Origin: Candidatus Heimdallarchaeota archaeon
Lineage (GTDB): Archaea; Asgardarchaeota; Heimdallarchaeia; JABLTI01
Assembly (NCBI GenBank): GCA_019058275.1
Contig: JAHLVW010000062.1
Span: forward strand, 128,001-192,000
Direction of reading: 5' to 3'
DNA length: 64,000 nt
In this document: positions 43,615-54,224 of the stretch, piece by piece
Position numbering within the stretch: position 1 is the first letter of the stretch
How the letters are laid out: the number at the start of each line of letters is the position of its first letter
Program-made: the position numbers and the translations under genes
The notes under the pieces: generated by a model
The model's input: the letters and a program-made list of their open reading frames with translations, nothing else
Databases searched by the model: none
Told to the model about the DNA's origin: nothing

Positions 43615-44250
43615 TTATTTAGAACAACATTCCTCGATTTCTTTGACAATATCTGTATCTAAAACTAATGCTAGCCATCCAACATATTCAATCAAGCTAT
43701 CAATTAAATCCCAATTTAGTTTTCCTAGTTTCTCGAGTGTTTTTTTGTTAGCGTTTTCAAATATATCAATTATCAGTCTGTTATTTTCAATAGTTAATTT
43801 GTTGATTAATTCACCTACTGCAGAAGAAGTCAATTTTGTACCGAATTTCTGTTCAAGTAATTCTTGTACAATTTCATTGAATAATTGCATTTCTTTTTCC
43901 GGTAGCTTTTTCTTTTCATGTCCAAGATATCTTTTCAAGAAAATCTTTGCAGTTCTTATGTATATTGTTTCACTTAGTAGCTCATCTGCTCCTTTTGAGG
44001 TTATTCTTTTTCCTGCTTTTGCAACAAAACCGTTCTCAATAAGCTCTTTTAGATAACGATAGATTGACTTATCTGATTTACTAACTCCACTTTTCTCAAA
44101 ATCTTCTACTAATTCTTTTACTGTTCTTGGACCTTGTCTTAGGAATTTTATTATATACTTATAGTTTTCTTCGCTATAGACTAGATCTACTTGCTCTTGT
44201 GTTAGTATGTTTACTATTGTCTGTTTGTAGGTTATTACATCTTGACTCAT
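43615..44250 (-). CDS. Winged-helix (ArsR-like) transcriptional regulator, paralog R1
   Basis: IIKFLRQGPRTVKEL...KSDKSIYRYLKELIENGFV; helical C-domain ending in CC; GGTGA SD. Confidence 0.8.
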   Translation of the reverse strand: MSQDVITYKQTIVNILTQEQVDLVYSEENYKYIIKFLRQGPRTVKELVEDFEKSGVSKSDKSIYRYLKELIENGFVAKAGKRITSKGADELLSETIYIRTAKIFLKRYLGHEKKKLPEKEMQLFNEIVQELLEQKFGTKLTSSAVGELINKLTIENNRLIIDIFENANKKTLEKLGKLNWDLIDSLIEYVGWLALVLDTDIVKEIEECCSK

Positions 44251-44378: not shown

Positions 44379-44420
44379 TTCTCATTTTTTGAGAAACACT
44401 TATATATAAGTATGAGAATA
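44379..44420 (+). promoter_or_regulatory. Operator/promoter P-A
   Basis: TTCTCA-N5-TGAGAA-acac-TTATATA-taagta-TGAGAATA. Confidence 0.75.
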
Positions 44421-44452: not shown

Positions 44453-44550
44453 ATGAGACAAAAACTCTATCACAAAAAACAATTAAAGATCAAATCAAAA
44501 AATACCATAATAAAGTTAGAATGGATTTTGCATTAGTTTATGGTCGTTAA
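44453..44550 (+). CDS. Small peptide A (about 32 aa; needs +1 nt in the A-run after codon 4)
   Basis: GGAG SD, ATG 44453; restoring one A gives MRQKTLSQKTIKDQIKKYHNKVRMDFALVYGR*; a hairpin overlaps the stop. Confidence 0.55.
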
Positions 44551-45599: not shown

Positions 45600-47384
45600 C
45601 TATTTTCTCTTTTTTAAGAAGAAAATTTGAGTTGCACCTGCTAAAGCAAGAATGCTGATAACTGCGACTAGTCCTACACCAGTTGTTTCGGTTGTTGTTG
45701 TTAAATCAAAACCAGCAGCTTCTATTTGTTCTAAAGCAAGATTAATACTATATTCATATGGTTCTAATGATTCATCAAAACCGATTGATACTTTTGGCCA
45801 GTGAGTTACTCCTGGGTAACCCATACCATCAAGTATTTCATCGACAATGACTTGTCTTGGAACCAAATGACTAATAGCCTTTCGAATGTGTCTACCGGAT
45901 TCCTCACTTGCAATTGGACATAATTCACCTGTACCTATGTATGGATGAAGCATGTTTACACTCATTTCTTGGTTTCCAGGAGCAGCTACTAAGGAGTAAT
46001 CAATGCCGGAAACACCTTCTATGTCTGATCTTTGAACAAAGAATTCGGAATCAATGATATCAATTGCATCGCCTGCGAGAGCAGAAATGGCACCTTCTTT
46101 ATTGCTATAGAATTCAAAGTAAATATCTTCAAAGTTAGGATCTTCTCCATACCAATCTTTGAAGTATGGATTTCTCTCCAAATGAACTACTCCATTTGTA
46201 CCATCCCAATTCTCTAGGTAATAAGGACCGGTTCCCATGAGTTTATTAGGATCTGAAGTAGCCCAAGTAACAGCTTGAGTTGCGTGATCTTCTGGAGCAA
46301 TAGCACCCCAGATGTGTTCTGGAAGTAATTGAATTCCTAAATTACCATCTTGGAATACATAAGGTTGTAAGAAAGTTATGGTAAAATCATCATCATCAAT
46401 TTTCACAACAGAATCATTGTCCCAGTAAATAGTATTGAATGAATAGGTTGTATGACCTAAACTTTCAGTAGCACCTAATTGGTAAGTGTAGATAACATCA
46501 TCAGTTGTAACAGCTGTACCATCTGCCCATTTAGCATTGGCTACAAGCTTGCAGTTATATGTTAAACCATCAGAGCTACTAATATCTTCAATCAAACGTG
46601 GAGTAAAAGCTCGATCAGCTAAAACAGATCGTTCAACCAATGCACCATAGATTTGAGTCAACCATTGAGCATCATAAGTTGATTCAATTAAATAAGGATG
46701 AAAATCAACAAAGTCAGCAGGAACTGCGAAATGCAATTCAGTAGCACTACCTAATGACCAGTTCTCCATTGGTTGATAAGCAGAAGCCCATAAAAGTGGA
46801 TCCCAGCCATCTAAAACTGGATCATGAGCGTAGAGATTAACGTTGTAGACGATACAAATGCTTGGTTGATCATCATAAAGAATTTCTTGAATTTCTTCAC
46901 CATAATGCATACGATCTGCCCATGCAAAAGATTGTGAATAATTTCCAACAGCCCAATCAAATTCTTGATTGTTATATTGATAATAATTACCACCATATGG
47001 TGTAATTCCATCAGAAGTAAAAAGTCCTGTTGGATCAAAATCAAGTCCCCAACCATAACCTATGAAAAGAATGTCAAATCCACCCTCAGCATAACTTGGT
47101 ATTGGGTATGGACCTGGATGATTCCATGTCCTTGGACCGATTTGTGCCCATCCTGTGTGGTCAAAAACATCAACAGCAATACCTATTTTTGGTAATTGTT
47201 CTACCATCAAAGTTGACCATTGATTTCTTGCAGGATTGGTATTTGGCGCAAGAATACTTATTGAAAAGAATGGTCCTGGATTTGCTGCTTGAACAGGTGT
47301 TGAAATAACTGACATTAAACCTAAGCATGTCAATAAAGCTAACGGAAGGAACATTCTTTTTAAATCCTTCTTGATTAATTTCAT
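45600..47384 (-). CDS. ABC transporter substrate-binding protein, family 5 (oligopeptide/dipeptide, OppA/DppA-like), C-terminally anchored
   Basis: KWADGTAVTTDDVIYT, MGTGPYYL, LERNPY, IRKAISH; signal peptide, T-rich linker, TM + KKRK; no permease nearby. Confidence 0.85.
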   Translation of the reverse strand: MKLIKKDLKRMFLPLALLTCLGLMSVISTPVQAANPGPFFSISILAPNTNPARNQWSTLMVEQLPKIGIAVDVFDHTGWAQIGPRTWNHPGPYPIPSYAEGGFDILFIGYGWGLDFDPTGLFTSDGITPYGGNYYQYNNQEFDWAVGNYSQSFAWADRMHYGEEIQEILYDDQPSICIVYNVNLYAHDPVLDGWDPLLWASAYQPMENWSLGSATELHFAVPADFVDFHPYLIESTYDAQWLTQIYGALVERSVLADRAFTPRLIEDISSSDGLTYNCKLVANAKWADGTAVTTDDVIYTYQLGATESLGHTTYSFNTIYWDNDSVVKIDDDDFTITFLQPYVFQDGNLGIQLLPEHIWGAIAPEDHATQAVTWATSDPNKLMGTGPYYLENWDGTNGVVHLERNPYFKDWYGEDPNFEDIYFEFYSNKEGAISALAGDAIDIIDSEFFVQRSDIEGVSGIDYSLVAAPGNQEMSVNMLHPYIGTGELCPIASEESGRHIRKAISHLVPRQVIVDEILDGMGYPGVTHWPKVSIGFDESLEPYEYSINLALEQIEAAGFDLTTTTETTGVGLVAVISILALAGATQIFFLKKRK

Positions 47385-47454: not shown

Positions 47455-47485
47455 ATATATAGGTGTTCTCATAACTTTGAGAACA
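47455..47485 (-). promoter_or_regulatory. Operator/promoter of the peptide-binding protein
   Basis: Minus strand TGTTCTCA-aagtta-TGAGAACA-c-CTATATAT (8-bp perfect inverted repeat next to TATA); a degenerate second site TTCTAA-N6-TGAGAA at 47510-47527. Confidence 0.75.
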
Positions 47486-49416: not shown

Positions 49417-50040
49417 TTATTGACAACACTGATTAATTTCATCTGGAATATCAATGTTAAGACTAATTGCTAACCAACTAACAAACTCTTTGACAAAATT
49501 AATTTTTTTCATATCTAAAACAGTAAATTCCTCTAAGGTTTCAGAGTCAGCATTTGAAATTAAATCAATAAAAACCTTATTTCTTTCTGCATTTAGTTTA
49601 TTGCCAAGCTTAGCCAATTTTATTGCAGATAATTCTTTGCCCTTAAAGAGATTTTTCAAAAGTGATAAAGCTACTATATATTCTGGACATGCAACACCTT
49701 CTGGACATTCTTTACAAGCTTTTGTTAGAAATACCTTAGCTGATCTCAAGTAAATTGTCTCACTAATAAGATCACTTTCATCTATTGATGTAATTCGCTT
49801 TCCTGCTTTTGCTACCAATTTTAATTTTAGAAGCTTATTTAAATAACGATAAATTGATTTTTCAGACTTCTCCATATCAAGCTTTTTGAAAGCTTGAACT
49901 AAATCACTAATAGACATTGGACTTTTTGATAAGAATTTCACTGTATATACTAAGTTTTGATCATTAAAACTTTCAAATTGCTCCTTGCTTAATATTAAAA
50001 CTGCCTTTTGTTTATATGTTATTGCTTCTTGTTTTAACAT
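49417..50040 (-). CDS. Winged-helix (ArsR-like) transcriptional regulator, paralog R2
   Basis: Shares ITYKQ, KS.KSIYRYL, VAKAGKRITS, SETIY.R.AK.FL, WLA and terminal CC with R1; GGAGG SD. Confidence 0.8.
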   Translation of the reverse strand: MLKQEAITYKQKAVLILSKEQFESFNDQNLVYTVKFLSKSPMSISDLVQAFKKLDMEKSEKSIYRYLNKLLKLKLVAKAGKRITSIDESDLISETIYLRSAKVFLTKACKECPEGVACPEYIVALSLLKNLFKGKELSAIKLAKLGNKLNAERNKVFIDLISNADSETLEEFTVLDMKKINFVKEFVSWLAISLNIDIPDEINQCCQ

Positions 50041-50131: not shown

Positions 50132-50173
50132 TTCTCAATTGTATGAGAAAACTTATATAAATTCATGAGAATA
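50132..50173 (+). promoter_or_regulatory. Operator/promoter P-B (bidirectional)
   Basis: TTCTCA-attgta-TGAGAA-aac-TTATATA-aattca-TGAGAATA; the minus strand also shows palindrome-TTTTATA-TGAGAC toward R2. Confidence 0.8.
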
Positions 50174-50209: not shown

Positions 50210-50296
50210 ATGCGACATGAAAAGAAAATCAAACGAATAATAAAGAAAGAACAAGAAAACGCAAGAATAAAATTTGCATTATATACAGACAGGTAA
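50210..50296 (+). CDS. Small peptide B (28 aa)
   Basis: GAGGTGA SD; MRHEKKIKRIIKKEQENARIKFALYTDR*; hairpin AGGTAAATA...TATTTGCCT over the stop. Confidence 0.75.
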   Translation: MRHEKKIKRIIKKEQENARIKFALYTDR

Positions 50297-50634
50297 ATAT
50301 TTGGTCTAGTACGACAATTATTTGCCTAAAAACTTACTAACCTGTTTTCTAATAAAAAAAGGCAAAAAATGATTCTTGCGAAAAACTAATTCTAAAAAAA
50401 TTCTTTGCTTAAGTGTATGATGGATCTATATAATTAGATAGTATTGTGTCTTATTTGAATCATGGTTCTTTCCAATCATCTTTTCTTTCTTTATTCAATG
50501 ATTCCTTATGCTTATCAGCTAATATGTTATACTTTTCAAAGAATATTTCTCATACGCGTTAAAAAGCTTTCTCAGTGCTTACAAATATTATTCTTATATG
50601 TTTAAATATATAGTCTCTTAATCATAAACACATA

Positions 50635-50677
50635 TTCTCACTATGATGAGAAATATTTATATACTAGTATGAGAATA
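50635..50677 (+). promoter_or_regulatory. Operator/promoter P-C
   Basis: TTCTCA-ctatga-TGAGAA-ata-TTTATATA-ctagta-TGAGAATA. Confidence 0.8.
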
Positions 50678-50713
50678 ATTTCCTAAGGATGTAGACAAAA
50701 TATGGGTGATTTA

Positions 50714-50815
50714 ATGAAGAAAAACAAGAAATCCATAACAAGTAAAGACATTCAAAAGGAATTAGAAAAAGTCAAGATACTCTTGACTATGTATTATTCA
50801 GATGGATTGATTTAG
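50714..50815 (+). CDS. Small peptide C (33 aa)
   Basis: GGGTGA SD; MKKNKKSITSKDIQKELEKVKILLTMYYSDGLI*. Confidence 0.6.
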   Translation: MKKNKKSITSKDIQKELEKVKILLTMYYSDGLI

Positions 50816-50839
50816 CAAGATTCCAGGAGGGGATCACTA

Positions 50840-50911
50840 ATGAATGATAGAAAGAAAATAAAAGATCAAATCAAGAAGGAATTAATCTCTTCCAAAGAGA
50901 GTAGACAGTAA
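50840..50911 (+). CDS. Small peptide D (23 aa)
   Basis: AGGAGG SD; MNDRKKIKDQIKKELISSKESRQ*; IKDQIKK identical to peptide A. Confidence 0.55.
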   Translation: MNDRKKIKDQIKKELISSKESRQ

Positions 50912-50946
50912 AGATCGGCATAAAAAGTAGGTAGGATGGTCCCATA

Positions 50947-51036
50947 TTGAATAAACAAAAGAAAGCTTACAAACAAAAAATCCAAACAGATAAGGAAAAA
51001 ACCAGAATGAGATTCGCCCTATTAACAGGCAAATAA
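50947..51036 (+). CDS. Small peptide E (29 aa)
   Basis: Purine-rich SD-like region, TTG start; MNKQKKAYKQKIQTDKEKTRMRFALLTGK*. Confidence 0.7.
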   Translation: MNKQKKAYKQKIQTDKEKTRMRFALLTGK

Positions 51037-51071
51037 GAAGCGTTCCATCCATGAGGAACGTTTCTTTTTTC
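51035..51071 (+). terminator. Hairpin + U-tract terminator closing the C-D-E transcript
   Basis: AAGAAGCGTTCC-N8-GGAACGTTTCTT then TTTT. Confidence 0.7.
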
Positions 51072-51194
51072 TTGATCTTATTTTAACTTTGTAGCTTATT
51101 GTTTTAGCTTTTTAGAATTAATGTCTCTGATTTTCAATAGTATAAATTTTTAAGGGAAATTATCTATAATACTATTAGAATAGATGATTTTTTT

Positions 51195-52175
51195 ATGAAC
51201 TGTAAATTCAAGATTTTTATGTTGAATATTATAGTGGTTCTAGTACTTATTTTTGCTAATTTCTCACATTCAGATGCAGCAACGAGATCATGGGATGTAG
51301 GTGATTTGTTTTTATTTAGCTATTCAAATTATTCCTATGCAAACACTACTAATACTGACTTTGTTGTGAGCGATATATTAGTAGTTTCAATTAAAGAAGA
51401 AGGTACTTATAATATTACTCGAGTAGATTTAAGTAATAATACCTATGCTTCTATTTTTACTGGAGTTGCCGGTTCTGGTTCCAATTTATTGAATTATTTT
51501 GGTTGGGAAGAATTCACTAATTATCAATTAGATCCAAATAGCTTTTTCACAATCACTTATGATTGGGATTATGGACATAATGAAATCGTACTAACGTATT
51601 TCAACTTTGGATTAATAGAAAATTGGCCATTTATTGAACCACAGGGGATAGAATTAATTTATTCATGAGCGAGATGTTTAACGAATCTGAAATTGTTGAC
51701 ACAGTTGTTGATCCTTATGAACCTTTAATTCATAATATTACTTTTGGAGATTTCATGAGTAGTGTTGAATCCTTTAGTATTATGAATAAGAATACACTAG
51801 CAGAAGCTGAACTGCAATTCAAGAACAACACTCGAAAATGGACTTTTGAATTTGATCTTTCCAATGTTCTAATGGATTCTGTATATAACATCACATTAAG
51901 GTACGATGAATATTTATCCTTATCAATCAATAATCTACAATTTTGAGTACGAATATACCGATGGTGGAGTACTTGATCGTGTGTTCAGAACAACTACAAT
52001 GGATATAACAATTGAAAATCGATTGTTGCATGTCTACTTTGAACGAAAAATGGTTTCTGGTGATTTCAAATCATTAGAAGCAAATTATCCTTATCTTATG
52101 GTTTTACCAGTGATTTTCCTGATTATATTAGTAATCAAACGGACTAAATCAAAGAATAATGGGAGGATAAAATAA
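51195..52175 (+). pseudogene. Surface-protein array member 1 (two frameshifts)
   Basis: Fragments 51195-51668, 51665-51946, 51906-52175 concatenate to a paralog of 52176-53141 (YDWDYGHN, DPYEP..HN.T, WTFEFDLSN, GGVL). Confidence 0.75.
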
Positions 52176-53141
52176 ATGAGTAAGAAAATCAAATTAGTAA
52201 TCAGTTCACAAATGATACTATTTATATTTATAATAAGTACTAGTCAATTCTCTGTTGCAATGGACCCCTCATGGGAAGAAGGAGTTTTTTATCCTTTTAA
52301 TTTTGTCTTTATATATAAGCACCATCAGCATGATATGAAAAATGATATTTTTGATGAATATGAAATCGAAAACAAAGATGAATATGTTTTTAATATAACT
52401 TATATTGATAACTCAATGCAATGGTTTCATACTATTATCTTTGATTCTCATGGCACTAGTTCTGTGTGGCTTAACTATAACGTCGATGATTTTGCTGATA
52501 ATGTACTAACAATCAGTAATATGTTTGATGTAGATTATGAATGGGATTTTGAACATAATCAAACAGTTTTAACAGACTTTGATTTTCACTTTTTTCCATT
52601 ATATTTCATTGATCCAAATTGGACGACCTATAATAGTCGCTTTGCTGATGTTTTCAATGGCTCTGAAATCGTTGCTACTGTTGCAGATCCTTATGAACCA
52701 ATCACTCATAATTTTACTTTACAAGACGTTTTATCTTTAGCATCTGATTACTCAATCATGGGTCAAAATGATTTAGCGTTAGCAAAAGAGAAGTTTACTG
52801 ACAATAATATTAATTGGACATTTTATTTTGACTTCTCAAACGCTATTAAGGATAATGTCTTCAATACTTCTTTAGGTTTTGATAGTTACGTTCCATATGA
52901 AACATATACAATTGACTTAGGATTTGACTACTCCCCTGGAGGTATTCTTGACCAATTCCGATATAATTTTGTGTACGAAATTATAAAAGATGAAGTTTTT
53001 AGACATTATGAAGTTGTAGAAGAAGCAAATACTGGAGGATTTCCAACAGTAGAAACACCTGGCTTAACGTATTTATTGGCAATTCCTGCAATATTCACAA
53101 TAGTGTTAGTAGTAAAATACACAAAAAAGAGGAAGATGTAA
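52176..53141 (+). CDS. Acidic secreted surface protein, array member 2
   Basis: Signal peptide, DYEWD..N.TV...FDF, IDP.W, C-terminal TPG-TM-KKRK sorting-like tail. Confidence 0.8.
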   Translation: MSKKIKLVISSQMILFIFIISTSQFSVAMDPSWEEGVFYPFNFVFIYKHHQHDMKNDIFDEYEIENKDEYVFNITYIDNSMQWFHTIIFDSHGTSSVWLNYNVDDFADNVLTISNMFDVDYEWDFEHNQTVLTDFDFHFFPLYFIDPNWTTYNSRFADVFNGSEIVATVADPYEPITHNFTLQDVLSLASDYSIMGQNDLALAKEKFTDNNINWTFYFDFSNAIKDNVFNTSLGFDSYVPYETYTIDLGFDYSPGGILDQFRYNFVYEIIKDEVFRHYEVVEEANTGGFPTVETPGLTYLLAIPAIFTIVLVVKYTKKRKM

Positions 53142-53228
53142 TAATCTTCTTTTCTTTTTATTTTTTACTTCAACTTTTTATTAGGAAATTCTTATATGAA
53201 AACATTTGCCAGTCTATTTAGTAATGAG

Positions 53229-54224
53229 ATGAAACTCATGAGCCAAAAAAAGAGTATTTTGATGTTGACTAATTTTATTATTATAGCTCTTTTAGTAAGT
53301 AATGCAATAACAAGTATTGCTATTGAAAGAGAGTACAATGCAGGTAATATCTTTACATGGGGTTTCAATATAGAAGAAGTAATGACTAACACATACTTAG
53401 ATCTTGATCTAGTCTATATTAATGATGAAACTGACAGTGGTGATATCCAGCTAAATATCACTGCCATAGATACACTAACAAAAAACTATGAGGGTATCTG
53501 GTCAGATGATTCTGGAAGTGGTAGTCCTGGAACATATGATTATAGTTTGGATGATTTGGGAGATCGTTTTGAGACAGTGGACCTCTTTGATATTGATTGG
53601 GAATGGGACTATCTAAACAATGTTACTGTTCCAGGTGATTTTGATTTCATGCTTAATACACCATATCTAATGTGGCAAGTTTTTGATCATTCATATCTTA
53701 TCGATCCCAAATGGGGAGATATAAATGATGCAATATTTGCAGGATTCAATCTTACCTATCAAGTAGAGACCTTTTACAATCCATACAATGCAAATATCAC
53801 CTACAATTATACACTAGCTGATGTTTTTGATAATATTTCTTTCAAAATCATGGGTAAAGATACATTAGCTGATGCAGAAGCAAAATTCACTGATACAATT
53901 TACAAATGGAACTTTGTATTTGACTTGTCTGGATTCTTAATGGAAGAATACTGGAATGGTACTACAGACATTTACCAAGCCTATGAAACATATATTGTAA
54001 GTTTATCCCTCGAGTATTCTGAGGGGGGTGTATTACAAGAATTAGAACACACTACAACGACTCTAATAACAATTGATGGAATTCAAGAGGAAGTAAATTA
54101 TAAATTTAAGCTTGCTTTAGGTGGAATGAAATCAGCAACTGTTAATTTTGCAACAATTTCAGCAGTAATTGGTTTGTTTACAATAAGCATTGTAATAGTT
54201 GTAATCAGAAGAAGAAAGAGATAA
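53229..54224 (+). CDS. Acidic secreted surface protein, array member 3
   Basis: Paralog; start probably 53229/53238 because the ATG at 53196 lies in the promoter motif GGAAATTCTTATATGA. Confidence 0.8.
   Translation: MKLMSQKKSILMLTNFIIIALLVSNAITSIAIEREYNAGNIFTWGFNIEEVMTNTYLDLDLVYINDETDSGDIQLNITAIDTLTKNYEGIWSDDSGSGSPGTYDYSLDDLGDRFETVDLFDIDWEWDYLNNVTVPGDFDFMLNTPYLMWQVFDHSYLIDPKWGDINDAIFAGFNLTYQVETFYNPYNANITYNYTLADVFDNISFKIMGKDTLADAEAKFTDTIYKWNFVFDLSGFLMEEYWNGTTDIYQAYETYIVSLSLEYSEGGVLQELEHTTTTLITIDGIQEEVNYKFKLALGGMKSATVNFATISAVIGLFTISIVIVVIRRRKR

Follow-up and report, generated by a model that had tools for sequence, protein, structure and literature searches.

Several open reading frames (ORFs) of 20-33 codons, each led by a Shine-Dalgarno (SD) site and all carried on one short transcript under a dedicated transcription factor, make up the staphylococcal psm-alpha locus and the multi-peptide leaderless bacteriocin operons, and such loci are routinely missed by annotation. 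Short multi-cistronic small-protein operons under a dedicated repressor are thus familiar from bacteria, and the Rgg-SHP and PrgX-PrgQ systems (RRNPP) of the Bacillota offer a further parallel, for which our analogy is built on their general features and on the layout seen here. Among known prokaryotes, the Asgard archaea stand closest to the eukaryotes; to our knowledge their small-protein repertoire is almost unexplored, and very few of their transcription circuits have been defined. Here we describe three consecutive short ORFs, designated C, D, and E, in a 64,000-nucleotide (nt) stretch of Candidatus Heimdallarchaeota archaeon (assembly GCA_019058275.1, contig JAHLVW010000062.1, positions 128,001 to 192,000 of the forward strand), hereafter the window, which has a G+C content of 30%. 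We read the C-D-E unit, with fair though incomplete confidence, as a self-contained operon wired to a repressor and encoding three cytoplasmic microproteins that work as a set.

The peptides of psm-alpha and of the leaderless bacteriocins are hydrophobic, amphipathic, and secreted, whereas C, D, and E are hydrophilic and Lys-rich and have no linked exporter. Loci of the present kind share with Rgg-SHP and PrgX-PrgQ the head-to-head arrangement of a tiny peptide gene and a regulator gene, the many paralogous pairs per genome, and the presence of a family-5 (OppA-like) binding protein in one presumed regulon; they differ in having no tetratricopeptide repeat (TPR) receptor domain and no export-competent hydrophobic segment, in that the conserved part of the peptide is common to the paralogues, and in their archaeal host. 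The regulator encoded next to the unit has the fold of Phr (PF1790, PDB 2p4w) and PH1932 (1uly, 2cwe), a winged helix with a helical domain at the C-terminus. Phr represses its targets and recognises a palindrome (PMC10746257), and the operator presumed for the window regulator is also palindromic, lying on the core promoter. The identity to Phr and PH1932 is only 17-20%, however, the operator sequence is a different one, and unlike these two proteins the window regulator is amplified in its genus, has micropeptide genes as its presumed targets, and has no known link to heat shock. The unit and its promoter consist of the following elements:

50547-50552 and 50569-50574, plus strand: two upstream TTCTCA half-sites, spaced by 22 base pairs (bp) and phased with the palindrome that begins at 50635
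50635-50652, plus strand: putative operator palindrome TTCTCA-N6-TGAGAA, abutting the TATA box on its upstream side, at the position of the B recognition element
50656-50663, plus strand: predicted TATA box TTTATATA, assigned by the archaeal promoter consensus
50670-50675, plus strand: third half-site TGAGAA, located 3' of the TATA box and before the expected start of transcription
50704-50709, plus strand: SD site of C, GGGTGA, complementary to the 16S rRNA 3' end GATCACCTCC
50714-50815, plus strand: cistron C, 33 amino acids (aa), MKKNKKSITSKDIQKELEKVKILLTMYYSDGLI
50826-50837, plus strand: SD site of D, GGAGGGGATCAC, with 9 of 10 positions as in the consensus GGAGGTGATC
50840-50911, plus strand: cistron D, 23 aa, MNDRKKIKDQIKKELISSKESRQ, a tail-less relative of the RMKFALxTG peptide family described below
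50947-51036, plus strand: cistron E, 29 aa, (M)NKQKKAYKQKIQTDKEKTRMRFALLTGK, TTG start, a canonical member of that family
51035-51076, plus strand: 3' hairpin from a terminator scan, with a stem of 12 bp and a loop of 8 nt, which overlaps the E stop codon and precedes the T-run TTTTCTT

Five other genomes of the genus have cassettes in the order C-D-E, at eight loci in total, and this genome itself carries a second, diverged paralogous cassette on contig C96. For comparison, the window cassette was aligned with those of G004 (90% DNA identity) and of G005, G003, and G007 (~71%), and with a second paralogous locus class from G002, G005, G007, and G003 (~69%). The aligned cassettes have in common, and in this sequence, the palindrome, the TATA box, the third half-site, C, D, E, and the hairpin. 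The order of the three cistrons is constant in all ten cassettes examined, and reading frames, start positions, and SD sites are kept across a DNA divergence of ~30% as well as in the paralogue that has diverged by ~50%. The single broken frame among the cassettes is a TAA within E of G002_C258 (L025, 3663-3746, minus strand), where an AAA codon has changed to TAA right after ...KTRM and the FAL tail is lost. The C96 cassette, which was found with a profile of C, contains a peptide of the C type, a D type of 27 aa, and an E type of 30 aa, with a hairpin behind them; operator, TATA box, and half-site are arranged in its promoter as in that of the window, and the cassette lies head-to-head with two tandem regulator genes. 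The window cassette, by comparison, has lost a head-to-head regulator of its own and, unlike the C96 cassette, stands upstream of a surface-protein gene.

Each of the three cistrons has its own orthologues with a conserved sequence. Those of C, in nine cassettes, end in ...K(V/I)(K/R)I(I/L)LxM(F/Y)YSDG(L/M)I, and the C type is present in six of the ten other genomes of the genus. D follows the pattern MK(D/E)xxKxKxxIKK(E/Q)L... over 19-24 aa in the aligned cassettes and is kept as an ORF of 19-27 aa in all ten cassettes (alignment A9). Orthologues of E measure 28-29 aa and start with ATG in G004 and others. As the order of these types is also constant, the unit represents a fixed set of three distinct peptides and not a variable array. 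Constraint acts on the encoded proteins: the pooled ratio of nonsynonymous to synonymous differences (pN/pS) is 0.37 for C in frame against 0.9-1.2 in the shifted frames, 0.45 for D against 0.72-0.85, and 0.67 for E against 0.9-1.6, the last from few substitutions (pS 0.07-0.29). Variable sites are most frequent at the third codon position, which holds 23 of the 48 such sites of C and 15 of the 31 of D. The antisense frames of the cassette showed no conservation, and a minus-strand gene (a 56-aa ORF at 50882-51052) was dropped for this reason.

An earlier note on this DNA, drawn up from the sequence alone, had described three back-to-back small ORFs of 33, 23, and 29 aa, each with an SD-like site, and these are all present as described. 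The 16S rRNA of this genome ends in ...CTGGATCACCTCCT, by which the sites preceding C and D are genuine SD matches; that of E is weaker in this genome (GGTAGGATGG), and its orthologues carry GGAGGAATCAC. TGGGT in the SD site of C is invariant in 7/7 aligned cassettes. C could also be read from an upstream in-frame ATG at 50702, giving 37 aa; the position 50714 is nonetheless fixed as the start, since it is held by ATG, TTG, or GTG across the orthologues in nine cassettes. The SD region of C (GGGUGAU, 50704-50710) is also complementary to the Phe-Ala-Leu codons of E (AUUCGCCC, 51018-51024), ~310 nt downstream; this pairing appears in single-sequence and consensus folds, with no covariation. The expectation that standard gene callers would overlook the unit is largely borne out by the assembly GCA_019058195.1, where only C was called (as 37 aa) and D, E, and the nearby peptide B were left uncalled.

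The same note had provided the unit with a promoter and a terminator of its own. Both a promoter and a 3' hairpin are found, but the promoter is not of the sigma-70 type: a scan gave no such site in front of C, so that this candidate was dropped, and an archaeal TATA box with operator half-sites stands in its place. The TATA box reads TTATATA or TTAAATA in all aligned cassettes. Both hexamers of the palindrome are invariant in 7/7 of them, as is GTATGAGAA, the element that holds the third half-site and that also lies 3' of the TATA box in the promoters of peptides A and B (two further peptide genes of the window), of the C1 paralogue, and of the C96 cassette. The palindrome itself recurs at the promoters of peptides A and B, of the C1 peptide, and of the gene for a solute-binding protein (SBP) in the window; genome-wide there are 15 exact copies against ~1.5 expected from base composition. 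In addition to the two upstream half-sites listed above, degenerate TTCTCA copies at 50591 and 50613 were read by eye, and the 220-nt stretch that contains the upstream half-sites is the second densest cluster in the 64-kb window (five sites, against a background of 1.17 per kb). The four densest clusters of the window are the promoters of A, C-D-E, the SBP gene, and B. A wider regulon defined by exact palindromes was considered and dropped, as the genes adjoining them are heterogeneous (an LVIVD protein, an ABC ATPase, a radical SAM protein, a DJ-1/PfpI protein, and a beta-lactamase fold) and suggest no common function.

At the other end of the unit, the 12-pair hairpin proper spans 51035-51066 and is the best terminator-like match of a scan that returned four such sites in 1.7 kb, with 0.2 expected. 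Its upper stem is kept in 7/7 cassettes and includes one pair with a compensatory change from C-G to U-A, for which G004 has the intermediate U-G, and the T-run behind it is seen among the aligned cassettes in the window and G004 only. A GC-rich hairpin followed directly by a U-run is what defines an intrinsic terminator, and the window element, which fits this definition, is predicted to terminate the transcript.

The three peptides have a mean hydrophobicity of -0.13 to -0.63, a net charge of +4 to +8, and longest apolar runs of 4-8 residues; the hydrophobic moments of D and E are low (0.25), and no signal peptide, hydrophobic core, or double-glycine leader was detected in the peptides. Being hydrophilic, so highly charged, and without longer apolar runs, they are unlikely to be exported by a Sec-type pathway, to insert into membranes, or to form pores. 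C was predicted by AlphaFold2 as a single helix over residues 10-29 (predicted local distance difference test score, pLDDT, 84). A Pfam search with all 13 peptides gave only noise (E 0.02 or worse), and a sequence search of the PDB gave no match for the canonical profile and only noise for that of C (E 0.39). Look-alikes in the ESM Atlas were sought for one canonical peptide and for C, with no usable match, and an Rfam search of the whole window matched no family.

E belongs to a family of microproteins that we define as stand-alone ORFs, 27-34 codons long, in which the N-terminal half is rich in Lys (IKxxIKK) and the tail (A/T)R(M/I)x(F/Y/M)(A/M)LxxG(R/K/A) comes immediately before the stop codon. 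A motif scan, followed by a search of all six-frame peptides with a hidden Markov model (HMM) built from alignments A2 and A6, identified 11 clear members in this genome, with the consensus M-x-K-K-x-x-I-K-x-x-I-K-K-(E/D)-x-E-(K/Q)-(T/A)-R-M-K-F-A-L-x-T-G-(R/K/A)-stop. The HMM matched in all ten other genomes of the genus, at 2-14 places each, and had no match in 69 other Asgard genera, represented by 291 genomes; E values reach down to 1e-15, and every copy ends at a stop codon. An exhaustive HMMER search of 1.84 billion protein representatives yielded 41 matches, nearly all of them stand-alone proteins of 28-47 aa that end at the motif. RMKFAL is encoded by varied synonymous codons among the paralogues. 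The possibility that the motif is a piece of a larger protein was dropped, as no long ORF of the genome carries it and the 1.84 billion representatives yielded no fusion.

E fits this definition (HMM E 7e-12 over positions 2-29, ending at the stop codon), as do peptides A and B. D falls outside it (HMM E 0.03-0.09, N-terminal match only, no tail), and hhalign aligns residues 1-15 of D with the N-terminal half of the canonical members (probability 67%, E 5e-5), so that by its sequence D is best described as a related but distinct tail-less type. The profile-profile match of C to the family is weak (probability 2.5%, E 0.018) and in the register that would be expected (EKVKILLTM against EKARMKFAL), and C has a conserved tail of its own, YSDGLI. 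These results agree with the earlier note where it related the unit to peptide A, 6 kb away, on the strength of 14 identical nt (AAAGATCAAATCAA, 50861-50874 vs 44485-44498, encoding IKDQIKK at both sites), and where it saw D as lacking the FAL tail and C as having a different one. Orthologous regions keep the reading frames, as it had asked to be checked. Its interpretation as a diversified array of specificity variants, decoys, or precursor variants is not supported, given three distinct types with orthologues and a constant order; array-length variation, which it had proposed to look for among related genomes, was absent from the cassettes examined; and the loss of the tail in D is not recent, as the tail is absent in all ten cassettes, an ancient and conserved state (alignment A9). 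The peptides match no described family, and searches of the literature on Asgard small proteins and archaeal peptide quorum sensing found nothing on them; the regulator, in contrast, belongs to a known structural class. Two regulator genes of this class lie in the window:

49417-50040, minus strand: the regulator gene nearest to C-D-E, encoding a 207-aa winged-helix protein with a C-terminal helical domain (weak Pfam match to HTH_5)
43615-44250: second regulator gene, 211 aa, a paralogue with 41% identity to the 207-aa protein

Eleven matches to the regulator family were counted in this genome; of the ten other genomes of the genus, nine have 4-13 and one has none. Its linkage to the peptides is recurrent: ~20 of the 69 peptide copies in other genomes lie head-to-head with a regulator paralogue at 177-491 bp, always divergently, and most of the related genomes carry a regulator gene head-to-head with C-D-E itself. 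An AlphaFold2 model of the regulator (pLDDT 92) has its best PDB matches by Foldseek in PH1932 (1uly, 2cwe), the two-domain PadR 5x11, and Phr (2p4w), with an E value of 3.8e-8 and a template modelling (TM) score of 0.53-0.57 for 1uly. The model fits the PH1932/Phr architecture, in which an N-terminal winged helix-turn-helix is followed by a C-terminal helical domain of ~90 residues. The regulator has more distant relatives in lineages across the Asgard archaea, with no peptide of the family found beside them, and none in a viral contig collection. A canonical peptide of the intact C1 module (32 aa) was docked to a dimer of a regulator, with alignments A7 and A6; the score of 0.00 was counted neither way.

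From this arrangement a mode of action can be proposed. The regulator made next door, as a dimer of the two-domain PH1932/Phr type, would occupy the palindrome abutting the TATA box, the half-site before the transcription start, and the phased upstream half-sites, and would so keep the promoter off; its binding and repression at the palindrome are suggested by the sequence. Upon its release a leadered mRNA of ~0.36 kb would be made, running from a predicted start to a predicted end at the conserved 3' hairpin, and the three SD-led cistrons would be translated together. Their products would be C, a 33-residue single helix ending in KVKILLTMYYSDGLI; D, a 23-residue basic peptide that equals the N-terminal half of the family; and E, a canonical member of 29 residues that carries the tail RMxFALxTG(K/R). 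The peptides would probably stay within the cell, in the cytoplasm. They may dock there onto a macromolecular partner, which we hold to be possible with less confidence than their location, the conserved tail then acting as the docking motif and the Lys-rich helix as the variable part. The paired regulators would be the first candidate for such a partner, in a feedback loop, an identification that we regard as doubtful.

Several observations weigh against a repressor-wired operon for cytoplasmic peptides. The SBP under the common operator is secreted, which fits an extracellular role of the peptides as well as a cytoplasmic one. The cassettes of the window and of G004 have no directly head-to-head regulator, the nearest being 660 bp upstream with peptide B in between; a relic of a lost head-to-head regulator was sought in 50296-50640 and not found. 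Family copies that stand behind a different palindrome, GTCACA-N3-TGTGAC, do not adjoin this regulator family, and the peptides therefore cannot act solely as its ligands. The low synonymous divergence of E could mean that its conservation lies partly at the RNA or DNA level, or that gene conversion occurs between paralogous cassettes, and the coding signal of D is weak (19 codons, with pN/pS near 1 in some pairs).

The head-to-head layout could instead indicate exported peptide signals in the manner of Rgg-SHP and PrgX-PrgQ, either the peptides as such or their conserved C-terminal tails, captured by the SBP and re-imported so as to switch the winged-helix regulators in an autoinduction loop. 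Many duplicated modules with a peptide gene facing a regulator gene, an operator common to the secreted SBP_bac_5 protein that lies between the two modules of the window, a multi-copy family limited to one genus, and ABC permeases of a type able to import peptides all speak for this reading, which we nevertheless find unlikely: the peptides have no signal peptide, hydrophobic core, or double-glycine leader and no apolar run beyond eight residues, the regulator has no TPR-type peptide-binding domain (only an HTH_5-like match in Pfam, and a fold of winged helix plus short helical domain), and neither a processing protease nor an exporter is linked to the modules. The most conserved part of the peptides, moreover, is the tail that all paralogues share, the opposite of what is expected of a signal that determines specificity, and with ~14 family-5 SBPs in the genome the presence of one near the modules is weak evidence. 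Extending this idea, the modules, the co-regulated SBP, and the downstream surface proteins might together form a peptide-based circuit for cell-cell signalling or self-recognition in Asgard archaea, with a PH1932/Phr-type regulator in place of the TPR receptor, the RMKFALxTG tail released or recognised, and C, D, and E acting together; we consider both the circuit and this assignment of its parts slightly more unlikely, and know of no archaeon in which peptide signalling has been shown experimentally so far. A set of leaderless secreted or membrane-active cationic peptides, similar to archaeocins or modulins, would likewise account for tandem cationic helical peptides of 20-33 aa in one operon with a dedicated regulator, and for a family limited to one lineage. 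It is highly improbable for peptides that are strongly hydrophilic and, in the case of D and E, have low hydrophobic moments, with no immunity gene or ABC exporter linked to the cassettes and with loci that are stable and syntenic across species instead of forming variable islands.

Other explanations place the function in the RNA. The ORFs could be translated leaders, at which ribosomes, or arrest of the nascent chain at the tail, decide on read-through of the hairpin into the surface-protein gene, given that the most conserved residues adjoin a stop codon embedded in the hairpin, that a co-oriented surface-protein gene follows 119-163 nt on in the window and at four orthologous loci, and that two other family copies (C22 and C107) lie ~20-30 nt upstream of larger genes. 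Against this, the next gene is convergent for five of the ten cassettes, for peptide A, and for the C69 and C102 pairs, and the unit behind peptide B has its own promoter, so that for most copies there is no downstream gene to control; an attenuator would not need three distinct peptides whose amino-acid sequences are conserved, and the T-run behind the hairpin is not conserved. We therefore hold leader ORFs to be very unlikely. That the 3' part of the mRNA folds back onto the 5' ribosome-binding site, as in the lock of hok- or aapA-like type I toxin modules, seems a distant prospect, even with the unusually low synonymous divergence of E and with a consensus fold in which GGGUGAA, at the SD of C, meets UUCGCCC, the FAL codons of E, a pairing retained by 5-7 of 7 sequences: there are no covarying pairs, one pair is broken in two sequences, both partners are conserved for other reasons (as ribosome-binding site and protein motif), the fold has a z-score of just -2.2, an antisense promoter is not evident, and the peptides are hydrophilic and not transmembrane toxins. 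Least credible are chance ORFs in an AT-rich conserved noncoding or regulatory RNA region. The ORFs are very short, AT-rich DNA yields many Lys-rich frames, and the pN/pS signals of E and D are weak, but three frames with their starts and SD sites have outlasted the divergence of orthologues and paralogue alike, the HMM values and the stop codon that ends each family copy speak for genes, and neither conserved antisense frames nor an Rfam match was seen.

The C-D-E unit thus represents a lineage-specific, multi-copy microprotein family under purifying selection that standard annotation has mostly missed, and it offers for the Asgard archaea a concrete candidate regulon consisting of a regulator, an operator, and three products. 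If the peptides were ligands of the regulator or exported signals, this would be a new type of peptide-based regulation in archaea. Gene finding in Asgard genomes of this kind should admit ORFs of 20-35 codons. The other genes of the window that bear on the unit are:

44453-44550, plus strand: peptide A, frameshifted in the assembly, with operator and promoter at 44379-44420, head-to-head with the regulator gene at 43615-44250
45600-47384, minus strand: family-5 SBP (SBP_bac_5) with a signal peptide and a C-terminal anchor, behind an operator-type promoter
50210-50296, plus strand: peptide B, a canonical member of 28 aa under a separate operator and TATA promoter (50132-50171), head-to-head with the regulator gene at 49417-50040
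51195-52175, plus strand: surface-protein family gene, here broken up into ORFs of 157, 93, and 89 aa, downstream of and co-oriented with C-D-E

The frame of peptide A has no ATG here, as a run at 44474-44479 has six A's (CACAAAAAACAATT) instead of seven. Seven are present in the C1 paralogue and in the 99.93%-identical contig JAHLVY010000002.1 (GCA_019058195.1), where the 32-aa peptide is intact (P0004 in GCA_019058195.1); the frameshift is either a homopolymer error of the assembly or a strain-level pseudogene. The promoter of the SBP gene (47466-47483, minus strand) combines the TTCTCA-N6-TGAGAA palindrome with a TATA box as in the peptide promoters, and its 5' leader contains the inverted repeat GTAGGGA...TCCCTAC. 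The gene lies between the two regulator-peptide modules of the window and adjoins no permease gene. The three ORFs at 51195-52175 are pieces of one paralogue, which has a signal peptide, sequons for N-glycosylation, and an anchor at its C-terminus. The gene is intact (329 aa) in G004 and called with an identical split in GCA_019058195.1; intact paralogues follow at 52176-53141 and 53196-54224. The co-oriented gene 3' of the cassette is intact (325-339 aa) at the four orthologous loci, and its homology to the surface-protein family of the window was shown for G004 and G005_C143.

Elsewhere in the genus, many tandem pairs of family members stand behind a second type of promoter, in which the perfect palindrome GTCACA-N3-TGTGAC and conserved TTGAGTCTC...AGTGAATC boxes lie upstream of the TATA box, implying a different regulator. 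An example is found at 4440-4470 of L002 (G000:C69), where the tandem pair carries the RMKFAL tail, and others in L004, L005, L010, L016, and L017. One subfamily (P0009, P0010, P0015, P0016; L005 1463-1549) ends in CLLTGC or CLFTGC instead of ALxTG(R/A), and its two Cys residues, four residues apart at the extreme C-terminus, could be a site of metal binding, disulfide formation, or lipidation. The single family peptides of L003 (G000:C107, 3767-4951) and L004 (G000:C22, 3638-4923), minus strand, precede larger co-oriented genes, with which they may be cotranscribed; the products of these genes are a protein of 352 aa that carries an HTH_5/DUF7347 domain at its C-terminus and a bactofilin-domain protein of 387 aa. 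Neighbouring contigs code for Ras-family GTPases, bactofilin, and SRP19.

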